DNA from: a virus
UHGV virus genome: UHGV-0212823
DNA: 35,607 nt
Strand: one strand, 5' to 3'
In this document: piece by piece, positions 4,245 to 28,802 of the stretch
How the letters are laid out: every line of letters begins with the position of its first letter
Position numbering within the stretch: the stretch's first letter is position 1
Position numbers and translations under genes: made by a program
Notes under the pieces: model-generated
Told to the model about the DNA's origin: nothing
Databases searched by the model: none
Seen by the model: only the letters and a program-made list of their open reading frames with translations

Positions 4245-5168
4245 TCAATCACCCTGATGAGAGCCAATCAGGTTCAGATAAACACCATCCTGACGTCTAC
4301 CCATATCTGCAAAGTTCTCACTCTCCAGATACCATTTGAGTACATTCAACGCCTCCTCACGACTGATCGGCCTGATGGTTTCCAGTTGCTTTTCCAGCCA
4401 GTTTTCCCTGTGCCAGATATGCGAACTCTCCCAGGCGTACTCGTTGGGATGCAGCTCCTTGTATGCTGCCACTCGCATCTGAGACAACCAGTCCCAGTAC
4501 TGGTATTCCCTGACGACGTCGCTGAGGGTATAGGGTGCCGGAAGCACGTCTGTATAGATAAACTCTCCGTCTCCCTCCTGCGTGTAATCACAGTAAATCT
4601 CCTGGTAAGGCCCGTACCTGGACTCAATGAGGCACTCAGCCGGAACAGGATCAAAAACAGCCTCATGGCTGCCAAAAGCACCACGAACATTCTCAGCCTT
4701 CTCCCGCTGTGATCTTGCATTACTGATGAAGTGCTGTGGGTTATCGAGCCACATTGTCGAAAATACGGAAGTCCAGCCCGCGCCGTTCTGCTGCAGGTAT
4801 CGCGTATACCGTTCCTGTGCCTCTTTCGGCGTGATTGTCAGTTTTCCCAGCGCAGCTTCCGCTGCGGCAATATGGACAGGCTCGCCGGTTTTGATAACCT
4901 CCAGCACCCACAGGTACGCATCCGTCTGTTTATGTCCTGTGATAACCCGTTGCAGTGGCAAAGGTTTAATTGTCGCCAGTTCCGTGCTGTATTTCGGTTC
5001 AGGGATGGTGAAAAGCTCCTGGTGCTCAGGATTGTCGCGAAATAACCCGGAGCGACGACAGAGGCTTTTCACCGTATTTAGATTGATGCCAGTTTCACGT
5101 GAGATGGATTTATACCCTCTGCCGCTGCGTTTTAGGCTGAGGATTTGCTCTTTAATATCGTTGTTCAT
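4245..5168 (-). CDS. helix-turn-helix domain protein of unknown function, 308 aa
   Basis: N-terminal MNNDIKEQILSLKRSGRGYKSISRETGINLNTVKSLC looks like an HTH; alternative upstream start at 5228 overlapping the ssb 3' end. Confidence 0.5.
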   Translation of the reverse strand: MNNDIKEQILSLKRSGRGYKSISRETGINLNTVKSLCRRSGLFRDNPEHQELFTIPEPKYSTELATIKPLPLQRVITGHKQTDAYLWVLEVIKTGEPVHIAAAEAALGKLTITPKEAQERYTRYLQQNGAGWTSVFSTMWLDNPQHFISNARSQREKAENVRGAFGSHEAVFDPVPAECLIESRYGPYQEIYCDYTQEGDGEFIYTDVLPAPYTLSDVVREYQYWDWLSQMRVAAYKELHPNEYAWESSHIWHRENWLEKQLETIRPISREEALNVLKWYLESENFADMGRRQDGVYLNLIGSHQGD

Positions 5169-10677: not shown

Positions 10678-10831
10678 TCCCGGCCTCCTGCGCTTTTTTA
10701 GCGACCTCTTCAATCTGCGACATAAGGATCCCTGCCAGTTCAATGCGGGCAGGTGTATCTGTCAGAAACTGTGCTGCACGTGCGAATGCCTCAATTTCGA
10801 TAAGGGCATCGGTTTTGGTGAATTCAGACAT
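10670..10831 (-). CDS. small hypothetical protein, 53 aa (paralog of the 10116-10286 ORF)
   Basis: RBS AGGAGG 6 nt upstream of ATG at 10831. Confidence 0.45.
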   Translation of the reverse strand: MSEFTKTDALIEIEAFARAAQFLTDTPARIELAGILMSQIEEVAKKAQEAGNE

Positions 10832-11111
10832 GCGCCACCTCCTGAACACTGGAGGTGCAAGCATCAAAACGCTGTTCGAAAATCCAGGAGAAGTGATCAC
10901 CACCCTCCATCAACTGGAGACGGCATGGAGCTTTGGTACGGCTCTGCGCGGCGAAGACCAGACTCAAGTTAAGAAAATGAGAGCGGGCCTGCTGCTCATT
11001 GTTGGCTTCCGCACGCAGAACAACGGGCGTGGTGTTGGGTTTATCTGACGGAGTTCCCAGAAACAGGTATGTGAATTCCGGGCGAGTTTGGGTATCATGT
11101 GAACATGCCAT
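10824..11111 (-). CDS. hypothetical protein, 95 aa, first gene of the early operon
   Basis: RBS GGAG upstream of ATG at 11111; the rest of the listed 247-aa ORF upstream reads like translated intergenic DNA. Confidence 0.4.
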   Translation of the reverse strand: MACSHDTQTRPEFTYLFLGTPSDKPNTTPVVLRAEANNEQQARSHFLNLSLVFAAQSRTKAPCRLQLMEGGDHFSWIFEQRFDACTSSVQEVAHV

Positions 11112-11185
11112 AATGTTACTCCGATTAACGTTGTGGTTAGAGGCCCAACCGGATTGCCGTCCGTGTTGGGCTTCGAATAACTCAA

Positions 11186-11233
11186 GGTGTATTTCACCTT
11201 CAAAATAAAGGCTACTCCATGGTGAAATACACC
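11186..11233. promoter_or_regulatory. pair of palindromic operator-like sites GGTG-N5-CACC in the divergent control region
   Basis: GGTGTATTTCACC at 11186-11198 and its exact reverse complement GGTGAAATACACC at 11221-11233, between the divergent gene starts. Confidence 0.45.
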
Positions 11234-11298
11234 GCAAGCCTTTTTTTAATCTTTTTTTTGCGTATACTGACATACACCAAGTCAAAGGAGTGTCAGTA

Positions 11299-11484
11299 AT
11301 GGCAACAGGTGCAAAGAACGCCAAGTCACAAATGACCACAGTACGAATCCCCCATGAAGTGATGGAAGATATAGAATTCCTCAAGGAGGAAGGAGAAAGT
11401 ACAGCTGGTTTTTTAGTTACTGCAGCAAAAGGCGAAATCAAGCGCCGGCAGCGCAAGAAATCGAAAGATAATCTCGACCAGTGA
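11299..11484 (+). CDS. small putative DNA-binding regulator (ribbon-helix-helix-like), 61 aa
   Basis: RBS AAGGAG 8 nt upstream; -10 TATACT at 11263-11268; basic C-terminus KRRQRKKSK; divergent from the early operon. Confidence 0.5.
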   Translation: MATGAKNAKSQMTTVRIPHEVMEDIEFLKEEGESTAGFLVTAAKGEIKRRQRKKSKDNLDQ

Positions 11485-11498
11485 TCGGTCTGGTTCCC

Positions 11499-11531
11499 AA
11501 AGGCAACGTTCGCAGCGTTGCCTTTTTCTTT
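11499..11531 (+). terminator. rho-independent terminator
   Basis: Hairpin AAAGGCAACG-TTCGCAG-CGTTGCCTTT followed by TTCTTT. Confidence 0.55.
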
Positions 11532-11563
11532 GTGCACAGATGGTGCGCAGGTAATGAAGCCGC

Positions 11564-12181
11564 TCATTCATATACCCCAACTTTCCCGCCGCCAATCAAC
11601 ACAAATGGAATCTGACCAATTTCATCCACCAGTTTTTGCGCATTAACCAGCTCTGGCAAATCATCCTGGCGCTTACGAAGACGGCGGCCGGCATCGGAAG
11701 AATCCTCGTCTGAAGCCTTCCAGGCCGCTGCAACAATATTCCGCATCTGTTCAATCGTGTGATGAACGCCAAGCTGAGGATCTGCCCCCTCCTTCTCAAC
11801 TAAATCCAGTAACCATACGCGAAGCTCTTTCGCTACTTTCGTGCGGGCAAACATGCCGATGAGGTGGGCACCACGCGGTGAGAAAAGACGGGTATCAATT
11901 TCACGTAAGCTATTGTTTATCCCGTTCACCCTCATTTTGGCGACGGTCGTCATTGATGGGCTGAACTCATCCTCATGGCGGTAAAAAAGATTCAGCACCT
12001 TGTCTTTATCTGCATATCCCAAGAGCCCGGCCAGAGTGTCAGCAGTGAACCAAATTTTACCGTCGCCATTGTCATACGGAATTACTACCCGGTCATGAAA
12101 CTTCAGTTCGCGACAAATAACGCTCTGACCGATTTCAGAGTGAGCGAATCCCTGCCCGGAAAGGGCATTCATTTTATTCAT
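11564..12181 (-). CDS. Bro-N domain protein (phage antirepressor-like)
   Basis: Motifs FHDRVVIPYDNGDGKIWFTADTLAGLLGY and LIGMFARTKVAKELRVWLLDLVEK fit the Bro-N fold pattern. Confidence 0.6.
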   Translation of the reverse strand: MNKMNALSGQGFAHSEIGQSVICRELKFHDRVVIPYDNGDGKIWFTADTLAGLLGYADKDKVLNLFYRHEDEFSPSMTTVAKMRVNGINNSLREIDTRLFSPRGAHLIGMFARTKVAKELRVWLLDLVEKEGADPQLGVHHTIEQMRNIVAAAWKASDEDSSDAGRRLRKRQDDLPELVNAQKLVDEIGQIPFVLIGGGKVGVYE

Positions 12182-13567: not shown

Positions 13568-13755
13568 TGCACCACCTCATACTCTGGAATCTAAGAGCCA
13601 TGTCAGCCAGCATAGATTACGGTTCGGGAATCAGCTTAGGCATAGCCTTTTCTTTGGATGGATTATCGTCTACTGAGGTAAACATGTCTAGATAGCACTG
13701 TATATTATGCCAGTGAAATTGAGAGAACACGATGTGAGGTCAGTTGTGACCTGTA

Positions 13756-13962
13756 TCAGGTTTTCAGGTCATGACGCGATTCGGCAATACGATTATTTAT
13801 CCACTCGTCGATCTCACTTTCGATAAATGCTATAGAACGCACACCAATCTTCACGGACTGCGGGAAGCGCTTTTCTTTAAGCAGCCGATAAATCCAAGCC
13901 TTGCTATACCCTGTTCTACGAAGTACCTCGGAAAGGCGTATAAATCTACTATTCTGAGCCAT
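13756..13962 (-). CDS. alpA: AlpA-family transcriptional regulator/excisionase-like protein (second copy); start trimmed to MAQNSRF
   Basis: RLSEVLRRTGYSKAWIYRLLKEKRFPQSVKIGVRSIAFIESEIDEWI, paralogous to the 12291-12488 protein. Confidence 0.75.
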   Translation of the reverse strand: MAQNSRFIRLSEVLRRTGYSKAWIYRLLKEKRFPQSVKIGVRSIAFIESEIDEWINNRIAESRHDLKT

Positions 13963-14607
13963 ATGATGTTTCCTGTGTTGCGGACATAACAAAAGAACCT
14001 GGCACTGAGTGACAGGTTTAATATTAATGATTCAAGATTAAGGATGTGGTTTAACCCACAGCATGCAAGCATGTGCGGTTAATAAATTCTTCAGCAAGAT
14101 AGATGCAGCTAAGGGGCTACAGAGTGGCGACTGAATTTCAACAAGGGACGAAACATACCTAGTAAGTGAATTTCTGAAATACACTCATAATACATTTGCT
14201 CATCCCGCATCGGGCTGAGAATCCAGATTTTAAAGAACTATTATACAATTGCATTTATCCTCCAGAACTTCTGGAAGACTGCTACACAAGGGCGTAGCGC
14301 GACTTACACTTAGGCAAGCCTCCCCATTAATTTTAAAGAACATCGCACTTTTCAGTGCTCGATTGATTCACTTTTCAGCGACGGAGAACAAGTGTTCGTT
14401 GTGAAAAGAACTGATCCGATTTCCAACCCTTCTTCAGGGCATGTCCGATGTCTTCACCGAGTAAATCATTTTAAAGAACTAGCACTTCAACAGTGCCGCT
14501 GCTTGTCTAAAGAACAATGGTCGTCAACTGAAATGAAAGATAGATCACTACTGTCTACATGTCCAGCGTTTTTCACATCATAAAAATGAACACGGCCTCA
14601 CTAAATA

Positions 14608-14730
14608 GTCGTTCCAAAACCGCCAAAAGTTGTTCCAGAGTTGTTCCAACTTGAATGTGTGCATATAAATAAAGACAATAACTTATCCTTATAAATATAC
14701 ATATGGAACAACTGGAACAAGTGGAACGAC
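14608..14730. repeat. nonamer array module A: three direct GTYGTTCCA copies and three inverted copies around an AT-rich spacer
   Basis: GTCGTTCCA 14608-14616, GTTGTTCCA 14629-14637 and 14640-14648; inverted TGGAACAAC/TGGAACAAG/TGGAACGAC tandem at 14704-14730. Confidence 0.6.
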
Positions 14731-14759
14731 TATTTTTCTCTTACATGTGAATAAACAGC

Positions 14760-15947: not shown

Positions 15948-16365
15948 ATTGGGGGTATCTCACTTCATTGAACCTGAACATACCCCCGAATGTACCCCCA
16001 GATGAGCGTAGATTTCAATAGATGATAATAGACATTGGGATAATGAGATTCTGCTCTATGCCTTGTTATATCTGGATTTAGTAGACTTTGAGAGAGGTCA
16101 GTAGAAGTGAATATGGTACGCCCTGTAGGATTCAATATAAATAAATAATCAATTGATATAAATGAATATTATTTTGTTCAATTTAATCACATACCCCCAC
16201 ACATACCCCCAAATTTATTTGCATCAATACTGAGCAAAAAACTTACCCGGTTTGGCAGAGTTCCAAGCCTATAGTAAAACAATAATGCAACAAATCCCTG
16301 ACTGAATTTCAGCAGCCATCTCTGGGTATCCATTTTTTAAATACGCGTATATATATACAGAAAAC

Positions 16366-16482
16366 GTTGTTCCAGTCGTTCCAGTTGTTCCAAAACATGT
16401 AATCAATTGAATTTTAAATAAATCATAATCGAAAAGTGGAACAATTCGGTGTCAAAAAAGTTGTTCCAGATGGCGGTTTTGG
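16366..16482. repeat. nonamer array module B: same GTYGTTCCA family, inverted relative to module A
   Basis: GTTGTTCCA/GTCGTTCCA/GTTGTTCCA at 16366-16393, TGGAACAA at 16437-16444, GTTGTTCCA 16460-16468, TGGCGGTTTTGG 16471-16482 (reverse complement of 14614-14625). Confidence 0.6.
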
Positions 16483-16959
16483 TACAACTGGAGTGGGTAA
16501 TTTGGAGTAGCAGTGACAAAATGGCGCAAATTTCAGCCAATGCACACAGGGTGTTCATGAAGATTAAGTGAAAGTAAAACAGATAGGGAATTTGAGATTT
16601 GGCGAAAGGAGTGTTGATCATTTGTGAGCAAACTGCATTCGGATTACTGGGCTTGCAGTTGCCAGAAAAACTACGAGCCGGCGAAATTCATACCGACATC
16701 GCAACCCATTGATGCAGCTTAATTATAGCGAATCGCGAGAATTGGCTAACCCATTGAAATTGTTCCAGAGTGTAAATTTACACTCTGCTCATAATACGTG
16801 CAACCCACTGAATTACCTTGATTATAACGAATCGTTAGGATTGCCTAACTGGCTGATTTTGTTCAATTCCGTCGATTCAACGGAGTTAGTTGATCACGAA
16901 TAGTATTCGGGGTCGCCTGAACATTAACACTACTTAGGTTCTAAAGAGGAGTTAAAACA

Positions 16960-17202
16960 ATGTTCGTGGAACTCGTTTATGACAAAAGGAATTTTGATGG
17001 TCTGCCCGGTGCAAAAGATATCATTCTGGGCGAATTGACCAGGAGGGTTCACCGGATTTTCCCCGACGCTGATGTCCGGGTTAAACCGATGATGACATTG
17101 CCGGCGATCAACACTGACGCCAGCAAGCACGAGAAGGAACAGATAAGCCGTACTGTTCAGGAAATGTTTGAAGAGGCTGATATGTGGCTGGTTTCAGATT
17201 AA
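16960..17202 (+). CDS. dinI: DinI-family protein
   Basis: 80 aa; pattern ELTRRVHRIFPDADVRVKP...EKEQISRTVQEMFEEADMWLVSD resembles DinI; strong RBS AAGAGGAG. Confidence 0.75.
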   Translation: MFVELVYDKRNFDGLPGAKDIILGELTRRVHRIFPDADVRVKPMMTLPAINTDASKHEKEQISRTVQEMFEEADMWLVSD

Positions 17203-22416: not shown

Positions 22417-22814
22417 TAACGCACCCTCCAGACACTCAACGGTTTAACCCGAAGACTGACAAGACCATTTTCGCCAGGAACCCATACAACGCCGGAATAC
22501 ACCACCCCGGCGCATCGCGCCCCGGCATTTTCAACAACGGCAATATCCCCACGCTGCGACAGTTTTACCGGTACTTCGTCGAGATAGCGGGCCAGCACCT
22601 TTTCAAGCGAACCGCCACCGCGCAATATCGCCTTTTTCGCCCCATGCTCACTGTCGTAGGTTCCGCGCCAGTCTGCCGCAAAATCCTCGCCGCACATGGC
22701 CTGAGCGCAGTCTGCCGCGAACAGGCAGCAGTCATGACTGCCCCATAAAAAAGGCCGCTTTTCAGCGGCCCTTATTACGGTAATTAATCTGTTATGCCAG
22801 TCCGGATGCTTCAT
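22416..22814 (-). CDS. minor tail protein, 132 aa (possible Cys/His peptidase-like)
   Basis: Position between tape measure and J; HDCCLFAADC motif; start overlaps J-like gene. Confidence 0.45.
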   Translation of the reverse strand: MKHPDWHNRLITVIRAAEKRPFLWGSHDCCLFAADCAQAMCGEDFAADWRGTYDSEHGAKKAILRGGGSLEKVLARYLDEVPVKLSQRGDIAVVENAGARCAGVVYSGVVWVPGENGLVSLRVKPLSVWRVR

Positions 22815-28125: not shown

Positions 28126-28802
28126 TCACTGAGTTGCTGCTATTAATGCAGCCTCGAGCCCTGCAAACGGGTCATTCGATGCTGATTGCTCGTCCCCACC
28201 CCAGCGCAGGATCGCATCTTCCAACGCTACTTTTGCCCCCTGTGATCCGTAGACGGCCGAGACGACCTGAGCAGCCTGAATATCACCGCGAATATCGCCA
28301 ATGGGGCTTTGCCTGTCGAACTCAATCCACATCAAAAGCTCGCTTGCTGTCATGGTCTGCCGAAGTTCTGAGAGCGTGCGCCCCATGCGGAGCGCAAGCG
28401 CCATCAGAAACTTTACGCCGGGGGTTGCGACTTTTCCCGCGCTTCATCCGCGCTGTTGATAAGGTCAAGCGCCTGTTTTAGCAGACGTGAGTGAACGGGG
28501 CCGTAAATTTCACGTACCTGCTCTTCTTCATCGACGCTGAATACCGGTTGCTTGTTGGTATCGCAAAGGACATCAATGAACAGCACGACGTCAGCACAAA
28601 GATTACGGTGTGCTTTTTCTGATACAGATACCTCGCCTTCTTCATCAGCACCAGATTTTGCAATTTCCTGCCAACGTAACCACCCTTCGCCAGAAGGTTC
28701 CCGCAGAACAACCTTCACACCGCCCCATTCAGGGACCGTAATGATTTTATGACGAAAGCCTGACATTTTAGCCAGCGCCAGTTCTTTAAGACTCTTAGCC
28801 AT
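28126..28802 (-). CDS. tail assembly chaperone G-T fusion via programmed -1 frameshift (T-like extension 28126-28443)
   Basis: The -1 frame is open from 28443 to 28126 and overlaps the last 10 codons of the G-like ORF; GGAAAAG lies in the overlap at about 28431-28437. Confidence 0.5.
28413..28802 (-). CDS. tail assembly chaperone (lambda G-like)
   Basis: 129 aa acidic protein between major tail protein and tape measure. Confidence 0.7.
   Translation of the reverse strand: MAKSLKELALAKMSGFRHKIITVPEWGGVKVVLREPSGEGWLRWQEIAKSGADEEGEVSVSEKAHRNLCADVVLFIDVLCDTNKQPVFSVDEEEQVREIYGPVHSRLLKQALDLINSADEAREKSQPPA

Follow-up and report, generated by a model that had tools for sequence, protein, structure and literature searches.

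The 35,607-nucleotide virus genome UHGV-0212823 (the whole stretch analysed, hereafter the window) carries a set of short direct repeats in the gap between its integrase gene, int, and alpA1, the first gene after that gap. An initial annotation had described them as iteron-like, either binding sites for an AlpA-type regulator or excisionase or part of an attachment or regulatory region controlling int. We propose here that these repeats probably act in RNA and not in DNA, as boxA elements (binding sites of the host NusB/NusE(S10) pair) of a tandem, nut-like antitermination array upstream of alpA1, judging from motif, strand, layout and comparison with relatives; protein sites on DNA they probably are not. 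We read the array as a multi-module variant of a nut-type antitermination leader that has no N antiterminator of its own. That the gap is a conserved non-coding regulatory region nevertheless holds, as the repeats look functional and are found kept in related elements.

The repeated word, TTTTAAAGAAC, occurs on the plus strand at positions 14228, 14331 and 14469 and nowhere else in the window, where 0.01 copies would be expected by chance, and three matches were reached in none of 100 shuffles. All three copies lie inside the int–alpA gap as originally described, together with the two variants (AAAAGAAC at 14404–14411 and CTAAAGAAC at 14507–14515) and the 13-bp palindrome CCAGAACTTCTGG at 14262–14274. 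The gap itself measures 797 bp from the int stop (14760) to the alpA ATG (13962), the earlier figure of about 770 bp being right only with an upstream TTG start. It was rightly called devoid of a convincing gene: its small open reading frames (two on the plus strand and one of 48 amino acids on the minus strand) have no Pfam match, the two plus-strand frames no PHROG match, and the longest sense frame runs to 48 codons. As int, gap and alpA are all on the minus strand, TTTTAAAGAAC is read there as GUUCUUUAAAA (also written GTTCTTTAAAA), and all three exact copies fit perfectly the gammaproteobacterial boxA consensus GYTCTTTAANA, derived from rRNA and suhB boxA sequences (Baniulyte et al. 2017, PMC5725501); the rrn boxA reads UGCUCUUUA and the lambda nutL boxA-spacer CGCUCUUAAAAAUUAA (PMC2724277). 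The consensus has five matches in the window with 0.15 expected, three of them clustered in the gap in the sense orientation. The other two, at 5147–5157 and 28781–28791 (+), are antisense to genes and probably due to chance. On the coding strand the gap follows int and precedes alpA, a position suited to governing alpA and the early operon rather than int, for which a control function had been suggested.

Read on the minus strand from a conserved promoter block to the first gene, the region comprises the following elements, where numbers beginning with L denote individual loci of relatives:

14539–14567, minus strand: promoter block P1, GCTGGACATGTAGACAGTAGTGATCTATC, a 29-nt conserved block
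14505–14515, minus strand: boxA-like 1, GUUCUUUAGAC (the 14507 variant), at about +16 from the proposed transcription start
14482–14496, minus strand: boxB-shaped hairpin GCACU-GUUGA-AGUGC, 8 nt after boxA 1 and 2 nt before boxA 2
14469–14479, minus strand: boxA 2, GUUCUUUAAAA, a perfect GYTCTTTAANA match
14445–14460, minus strand: hairpin UCGGUG-AAGA-CAUCGG, 8 nt after boxA 2
14426–14440, minus strand: boxB hairpin GCCCU-GAAGA-AGGGU, its stem closed by a G–U pair
14399–14411, minus strand: boxA-like 3, GUUCUUUUCACAA (the 14404 variant), first element of a nut module of the H-19B/Stx-phage type
14386–14397, minus strand: inter-box hairpin GAAC-ACUU-GUUC of the same nut module
14368–14381, minus strand: boxB UCGCU-GAAA-AGUGA of the same nut module, with a GNRA tetraloop
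14345–14358, minus strand: hairpin GCACU-GAAA-AGUGC, 3 nt before boxA 4
14331–14341, minus strand: boxA 4, GUUCUUUAAAA, which reads GCUCUUUAAAA in L095, L098 and L107
14301–14320, minus strand: 7-bp hairpin GGCUUGC-CUAAGU-GUAAGUC, 10 nt after boxA 4
14259–14277, minus strand: hairpin CUUCCAG-AAGUU-CUGGAGG, containing the 13-bp palindrome
14228–14238, minus strand: boxA 5, GUUCUUUAAAA, with GTTCTTTAAAAT common to the window, L001, L002 and L095
14199–14219, minus strand: 9-bp hairpin CUCAGCCCG-AUG-CGGGAUGAG, 8 nt after boxA 5
14144–14160, minus strand: conserved hairpin around GAUGUUUCGUCCCU, with a TCGTCCCT block invariant in the leader alignments
14055–14078, minus strand: hairpin t1, CCGCACAUGC...GCUGUGGG, minimum free energy (MFE) -13.2 kcal/mol, z = -2.4
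13988–14018, minus strand: intrinsic-terminator-like hairpin t2, followed by UUCUUUUGUU, MFE -9.2 kcal/mol, z = -2.3
13756–13962, minus strand: alpA1, 68 amino acids, Phage_AlpA/HTH_17 (Pfam PF05930, E = 1.4e-20), the first gene after the leader

The layout is that of nut sites in several respects. Three perfect and two near boxA matches stand in the sense orientation downstream of the conserved promoter, in what is predicted to be an untranslated transcript, and each of the five boxA-like words has a hairpin within 10 nt downstream. Counting as boxB-shaped any hairpin whose 5-bp stem closes with U–A on a GNRA-like loop of four or five nucleotides, we find four within 14345–14496 on the minus strand (three if the GUUGA loop is left out); the entire minus strand has six and the plus strand has none, where 0.84 would be expected on both strands together. 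Covariation is seen in the stems. Two further hairpins of this shape, at 22609 and 22768 (minus), lie inside tail genes and are probably there by chance. The 14426–14440 hairpin shares 14 of 15 bases with the lambda nutL boxB, GCCCUGAAGAAGGGC, the single difference falling in the closing G–U pair, which is replaced by A–U in the L001 counterpart (ACCCU...AGGGU).

A resemblance to a known nut site is found at 14411–14368, which is collinear with the nutR of Stx2 phage 1717 (boxA, a 4-bp inter-box hairpin and a GAAA boxB) and aligns with it over 57 positions at 37 identities (GTTCTTTTCACAACGAACACTTGTTCTCCGTCGCTGAAAAGTGA in the window, GCCGCTCTTTGTAACAACGGACATTCGTCCTACGTCGCTGAAAAGCGA in the phage), boxA-like 3, GUUCUUUUCACAA, standing opposite GCUCUUUGUAACAA. 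The 14404 variant is therefore the boxA of a recognisable nut site. The inter-box stem covaries, being GAAC/GUUC in the window, GGAC/GUCC in Stx 1717, L002 and L154, and GGGA/UCCC in L107 and L095, and the 14368–14381 boxB shows a compensatory stem change in L036 and the GNRA variant GCAA in L154. The commonest form of this stem-loop, ACGTCGCTGAAAAGYGA, occurs in at least 120 viral contigs, and the contexts inspected were the cro–cII spacer, where nutR lies, of lambdoid phages that are in many cases Stx-converting. For H-19B, too, nutR has been described with a pair of hairpins, N binding the tetraloop of boxB (PMC3526286). In the MFE fold of 14360–14415 (minus strand), boxA-like 3 (CUUUUCAC) pairs with the 3' side of the boxB (GUGAAAAG), an alternative structure that would hide both elements.

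We fetched 160 loci encoding integrase relatives. Clusters of two to six sense boxA words occur in 10 distinct leaders downstream of related integrases. A relaxed boxA motif occurs 57 times in sense and 4 times in antisense orientation over 7.8 kb of such leaders, and in the 700 nt upstream of alpA at 109 non-redundant loci there are 14 sense matches and one (strict) or two (relaxed) antisense ones, with about 0.6 expected per strand. Most of the differences between copies concern the consensus positions Y and N (GCUCUUUAACA, GUUCUUUAACA, GCUCUUUAAUA and others). The first boxA-like word falls at leader-slice position 21–38 in 10 of 11 leaders and the second at 61–73 in most, with a hairpin in between, and across eight distinct leaders the 40 nt following a boxA fold with a mean MFE of -9.3 kcal/mol, compared to -5.8 kcal/mol for all windows of the same leaders (Mann-Whitney p = 5.5e-7). 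The hairpin between boxA 1 and boxA 2 changes its sequence while retaining its shape: GCACU/AGUGC in the window, GCGCU-GAAAA-AGCGC in L002, with a loop of the lambda nutR type, GUGCU-GACAA-AGCAC in L107 and GCGCU-GAAAA-AGUGC in L138. The exact lambda nutR boxB (sequence from PMC2724277) is carried by L053 as GCCCUGAAAAAGGGC, and the GACAA loop of L107 is that of the P22 boxB, GCGCUGACAAAGCGC (PMC11480772).

Covariation extends over six local helices in an alignment of six sequences: 92.4% of cells are paired, as opposed to 32–44% with slid partners, and 13 pairs are changed on both sides, as opposed to 0–4, values that none of 500 shuffles reaches. The UCGGUG/CAUCGG helix (helix 2) has 96.7% of cells paired and three pairs changed on both sides, the 14301–14320 helix (helix 4) 100% and again three, and the 14199–14219 helix (helix 6) five such pairs (L107 GUAUCCUG/CAGGAUAC; L095 GUAUUCUU/AAGGAUAC). 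Support is weaker for the palindrome hairpin (helix 5), which is 83% paired with zero double changes and keeps its CCAG/CUGG stem in five of six aligned sequences around a varying loop; 14259–14277 may be a DNA palindrome rather than an RNA hairpin. Further downstream, the TCGTCCCT block is present in L036 and L154 too. Between the window and its closest relative, L001, the boxA words show no change in 57 nt, which is weak evidence given that the leaders are 95% identical overall.

The same comparisons bear on whether the repeats are instead double-stranded DNA sites for AlpA, an excisionase or another regulator of the element, as first suggested. Two AlpA-family genes lie nearby, AlpA activates its own promoter in EcCICFT073 (PMC6092414), and the repeats are exact 11-mers, all of which such sites would accommodate. 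We nonetheless consider this unlikely: the copies are co-oriented with transcription across relatives in the 57-to-4 ratio given above, the word matches a known RNA consensus, the sites are 1.6–1.9 kb from the attachment (att) core described below, and the region upstream of alpA in EcCICFT073 has no such words while carrying GGAACAAC-type repeats. Their spacing is moreover irregular (103 and 138 bp) and altered in L001, where an insertion of about 23 nt makes it 103 and 161 bp; together with the match to an RNA consensus, this also speaks against the iteron-like behaviour proposed at the outset. The AlpA of Pseudomonas, a Q-like antiterminator acting on the element GGGACG, was considered as a model and judged not comparable, as it has at least 142 residues and eight helices where alpA1 encodes 68 amino acids.

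An RNA function would require that the array be transcribed, and a candidate promoter is found at the appropriate place. P1 is sigma-70-like, with a -35 of TGGACA (14565->14560), a 17-nt spacer and a -10 of TATCTT (14542->14537), a 9/12 match in the promoter scan that would put the transcription start near 14530. Its 29-nt block does not vary among L001, L002, L089 and L095 and can be recognised, with six mismatches or fewer, in 15 more loci; at the equivalent place, L137 and L138, which are more distant, carry TTGACT-17-TATAAT. A diverged second copy of the block, CACTGGCATAATATACAGTGCTATCTAGAC, is found at 13686–13715 between alpA1 and a 323-amino-acid gene, and relatives that lack the long leader (L152–L160) have a P1-like block immediately before their first early gene. 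From P1 to the alpA1 start codon, the predicted untranslated leader spans about 570 nt; its 3' third is C-rich over G (C/G 1.3–1.8), as expected for Rho loading. As a whole the leader folds modestly better than shuffles (z = -2.4), the local hairpins being more informative.

Terminators downstream of the array, as expected for nut sites, are predicted at t1 and t2, before alpA1. In L036, L053 and L154, a U run comes after hairpin t1; in the window this run is degenerate. Hairpin t2, which has a U run and ends about 15 nt before the alpA ribosome-binding site, is kept in L001, L002, L095, L098, L107 and L053. A terminator-like hairpin directly precedes the first gene in all 10 leaders inspected, and those of L036, L154 and L137/L138, at the place of t2, are unrelated to it in sequence, which argues for conservation of function.

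These data suggest a model where transcription starting at P1 would expose the nut-like sites as RNA emerging from the polymerase, and where these sites would nucleate a Nus complex (NusB/E, NusA, NusG and SuhB, with or without an N-type RNA-binding protein). Such a complex could protect the polymerase from Rho along the lengthy untranslated RNA and carry it past the hairpins at 14078–14055 and 14018–13988, so that read-through would gate alpA1 and the early operon behind it. The trans-acting factor may be the host Nus factors alone or the N protein of another phage. A boxA-nucleated host complex suppresses both Rho-dependent and intrinsic termination in vitro (PMC6614801), and an N protein is therefore not strictly required; the retention of boxB hairpins close to the lambda, Stx and P22 types keeps an N from another phage in consideration.

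Several observations weigh against this antitermination model. No cognate N was found within the window: a six-frame scan for arginine-rich N-termini returned nothing credible, tblastn of the window for Stx-phage N gave no match (best E = 1.4), and no N family is among the Pfam and PHROG matches of the early genes, so that the classical lambda mechanism is incomplete. In the window P1 agrees with the consensus at just 9 of 12 positions, the hairpins that follow boxA 4 and boxA 5 lack boxB-type loops, and several boxA words per leader are unusual among known boxA systems. The GUUGA loop was put on the loop list after it had been seen, and the covariation rests on six sequences and on a structure drawn from the window row, which is thereby favoured in the slid-partner control. 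Finally, the leader and alpA1 behave as an accessory mosaic cassette, since both are absent from the closest integrase relatives, L081–L088, where int is directly followed by a 350-amino-acid gene and an AlpA2-like gene; in L002, L095, L098 and L107 the same leader stands before a different first gene. As to distribution, the double-boxA module is not widespread, the pattern TCTTTAA…CTGAAAAAG…TCTTTAA having seven matches in viral contigs, one of them a true family member, and close DNA relatives of the gap were found neither among E. coli genomes nor among deposited phages.

The absence of the cassette from the closest integrase relatives, the lack of an N gene and the mosaicism of phage genomes at large would also suit a decaying fragment of lambdoid nutL/nutR regions without present function. 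We regard such decay as very unlikely, as about ten leaders retain the architecture although their sequences have diverged so far that they are difficult to align; stem changes are compensatory, boxA words are perfect, and terminators have been replaced by functional equivalents. Another alternative takes t1/t2 as the end of a structured non-coding RNA of about 500 nt serving as a Nus/N decoy or immunity RNA: the terminators would define a discrete molecule, the structure is conserved, and boxB types of different specificity classes are combined in one leader without a cognate N gene. This too appears improbable to us, given that no Rfam family matches (only the three tRNAs of the window pass the gathering threshold, and the gap yields noise at E <= 10) and that no complementary target was found, all copies being direct; in roughly half of the leaders the gene directly behind the terminator is alpA, in the rest another early gene, an arrangement no less in keeping with a leader. 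The leader could also act on the N antiterminators of other lambdoid phages, as their multi-specific sensor or as a decoy, a suggestion that we make tentatively and think rather unlikely. It strings boxBs of the lambda and Stx/H-19B types (and of the P22 type in relatives) before terminators and alpA1, without an N of the phage's own. As a sensor, it would let lambdoid induction or superinfection switch on alpA1 and hence excision and the early operon; as a decoy, its RNA would soak up the intruder's N.

The remaining suggestion of the initial annotation, that the gap is an attachment region, did not hold, as the att core maps upstream of int. In most integrase relatives, about 150 of them integrated, homology to the window upstream of int stops at 16133, and the 20-nt core GAATCCTACAGGGCGTACCA (16114–16133) is the 3' end of a host tRNA gene upstream of int (tRNA-Arg(UCU) in close relatives, tRNA-Arg(CCU) or tRNA-Thr in two distant ones), of which the window holds just those 20 nt. 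The homology stop and the tRNA core together place attP, the phage attachment site, upstream of int, and the same breakpoints with the tRNA-Arg core rule out an attP in the gap. Many IMG/VR prophage contigs begin at the int start codon and run downstream, so that the gap is interior to the prophage. The core is flanked by ACATACCCCC repeats at 15978 (with a degenerate copy adjoining), 16189 and 16201 (regions 15951–15999 and 16189–16210), which are likely candidates for the arm-type sites of the integrase.

That the boxA words are replication iterons, arm-type attP sites or the U-rich tails of weak intrinsic terminators is, in our estimation, extremely unlikely, even though the repeats are direct, the integrase has an arm-binding domain, and two of the copies follow short hairpins flagged by a terminator scan. 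The ACATACCCCC repeats on both sides of the core already supply candidate arm sites; no AT-rich unwinding element or regular phasing accompanies the words and the primase gene is 6 kb away; and a U-tract would explain neither the conserved G at position 1 nor the AANA tail, the copy at 14228 moreover having no adjacent upstream hairpin. Two of these candidates were also rejected directly, replication iterons on the irregular spacing and the lack of an AT-rich element between the copies, and attP arm-type sites on a core lying 1.6 kb away on the other side of int.

A different repeat is a better candidate than TTTTAAAGAAC for AlpA or regulator sites, and a candidate too for sites of a recombination directionality factor or a replication protein. 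All nine exact GTYGTTCCA 9-mers fall in two clusters, one at 14608–14730 between the int stop and P1, with three direct copies, about 55 bp of AT-rich sequence and three inverted copies, and one at 16366–16468 (the wider region being 16366–16488), beyond the distal att arm and beside attP; similar GGAACAAC repeats occur in the int–alpA gap of EcCICFT073 (L168:11190–11250). The preference as a candidate AlpA site is based on this position upstream of P1 and beside attP and on the sharing with EcCICFT073. Position 16759–16767 belongs with this observation as well. The two clusters would lie at opposite ends of the prophage and are 1.7 kb apart in the circle. If transcribed, the inverted, perfect 14-nt arms at 14603–14616 and 14722–14735 could fold the 3' end of the int mRNA into a hairpin.

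The wider genome is that of a temperate phage in a circular or excised arrangement, with nearly all genes on the minus strand:

35565–17337, minus strand: head and tail genes, ending with the tail fibre
16960–17202, plus strand: DinI-family gene
15947–14760, minus strand: P4-type integrase with an arm-binding domain
12488–12291, minus strand: second alpA, an AlpA paralogue
1319–1549: tRNA cluster Met(CAU)-Arg(UCU)-Gly(UCC), between Rha/Q and the lysis genes

After alpA1 follow the 323-amino-acid gene, the second alpA, a Bro-N anti-repressor, a CHC2 zinc-finger gene, a DUF927 primase, SSB and Q, and then a Rha-like regulator, the three tRNAs and the lysis genes. The order int/AlpA, Bro and replication has been described for Gram-negative phage-inducible chromosomal islands (PICIs) (PMC10111431), and the late region resembles Salmonella and Klebsiella siphophages. 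The whole appears as a complete-looking temperate phage in which a lambdoid late region (Q, tRNAs, lysis, head, tail, DinI) adjoins a PICI-like early region. Judging from contig sizes, the terminase region should lie in the few kb of the phage that the window does not include, and no repressor of the LexA/CI type was recognised in the window. The phage integrates into a host tRNA-Arg(UCU) gene and carries an unrelated tRNA-Arg(UCU) of its own. Beside the Bro-N gene, a 64-amino-acid open reading frame at 11290–11484 (+) (PHROG 949/6522, with a ribbon-helix-helix-like pattern by eye) lies antisense to a 247-amino-acid minus-strand frame at 10824–11567, a placement resembling the YlcI/YnfO and Icd-like pair of int-alpA elements from E. 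coli (L164), for which immunity RNAs have been reported. The same L164 locus, an int-alpA element of E. coli O104:H4, has a perfect rrn-type boxA, GCTCTTTAACA, in the sense orientation at 4509–4519 between its antirepressor and Icd-like genes, and boxA may therefore be used elsewhere in such elements.

In Gram-negative PICIs, alpA relies on a helper phage for its expression, by a route reported as unidentified (PMC10111431). If the antitermination model is right, boxA and boxB signals would act in a new context, gating the AlpA master regulator of a PICI/P4-like early region, and host Nus factors or the N of a co-resident phage could control the induction of such elements, a route that is testable. 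It would also show that a repeat with the look of a DNA iteron can be an RNA signal, which matters for the annotation of phage intergenic regions. The literature searched held no link of alpA leaders or PICI-like elements with boxA or nut sites. With EcCICFT073 and other PICIs the window shares the order int, alpA, Bro-N, DUF927 primase and SSB, alpA as first early gene and GGAACAAC-type repeats after int, but unlike them it carries a full late region (Q, lysis, head, tail). In EcCICFT073 and in four further int–alpA elements from E. coli, nut modules are missing from the region upstream of alpA, so that we see here a feature of one phage lineage and not of PICIs generally.

Among known antitermination systems, the closest are the lambdoid nut sites (nutR of Stx/H-19B/933W phages and lambda nutL), which likewise present a boxA, a spacer and a boxB hairpin before terminators on an early transcript. 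They have one boxA and one boxB each, whereas the window leader has five boxA-like words and at least four boxB-shaped hairpins, mixes boxB types of different N proteins, lies between int and alpA and not beside cI, cro or N, and comes without an N gene. The mEp021/mEpimmI phages, in which three nut sites are used by the N-like Gp17 with Nus dependence (PMC11893012), are also non-lambda-like temperate phages exceeding the usual two nut sites, but theirs are dispersed (nutL, nutR1, nutR2) and Gp17 is encoded, whereas the window sites are in tandem within one leader. Host-only boxA systems (rrn, the leaders of Salmonella CRISPR arrays and the suhB 5' untranslated region) share with the window the rrn-type consensus, as opposed to the weaker lambda form CGCUCUUA, and a long untranslated RNA otherwise exposed to Rho; as in the boxB-boxA order of rrn, a hairpin also precedes boxA in window modules 1–2 and at boxA 4. 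These systems have a single boxA and are not known to gate a regulator of a mobile element, and the window differs further by its phage-type boxB hairpins and intrinsic terminators. The P4 CI RNA and the C4 RNAs of P1/P7 are comparable as structured untranslated leaders with repeated short sequences and control by premature termination before early genes, P4-type int and primase being part of the shared context, but their repeats are complementary (seqA/seqC versus seqB) where those of the window are all direct, and the window gave no match to C4 in Rfam. Overall, nut sites and boxA are well known in themselves, and what appears unusual here is their tandem multiplicity, together with boxB classes that are mixed, a cognate N that is missing and a position between int and alpA.

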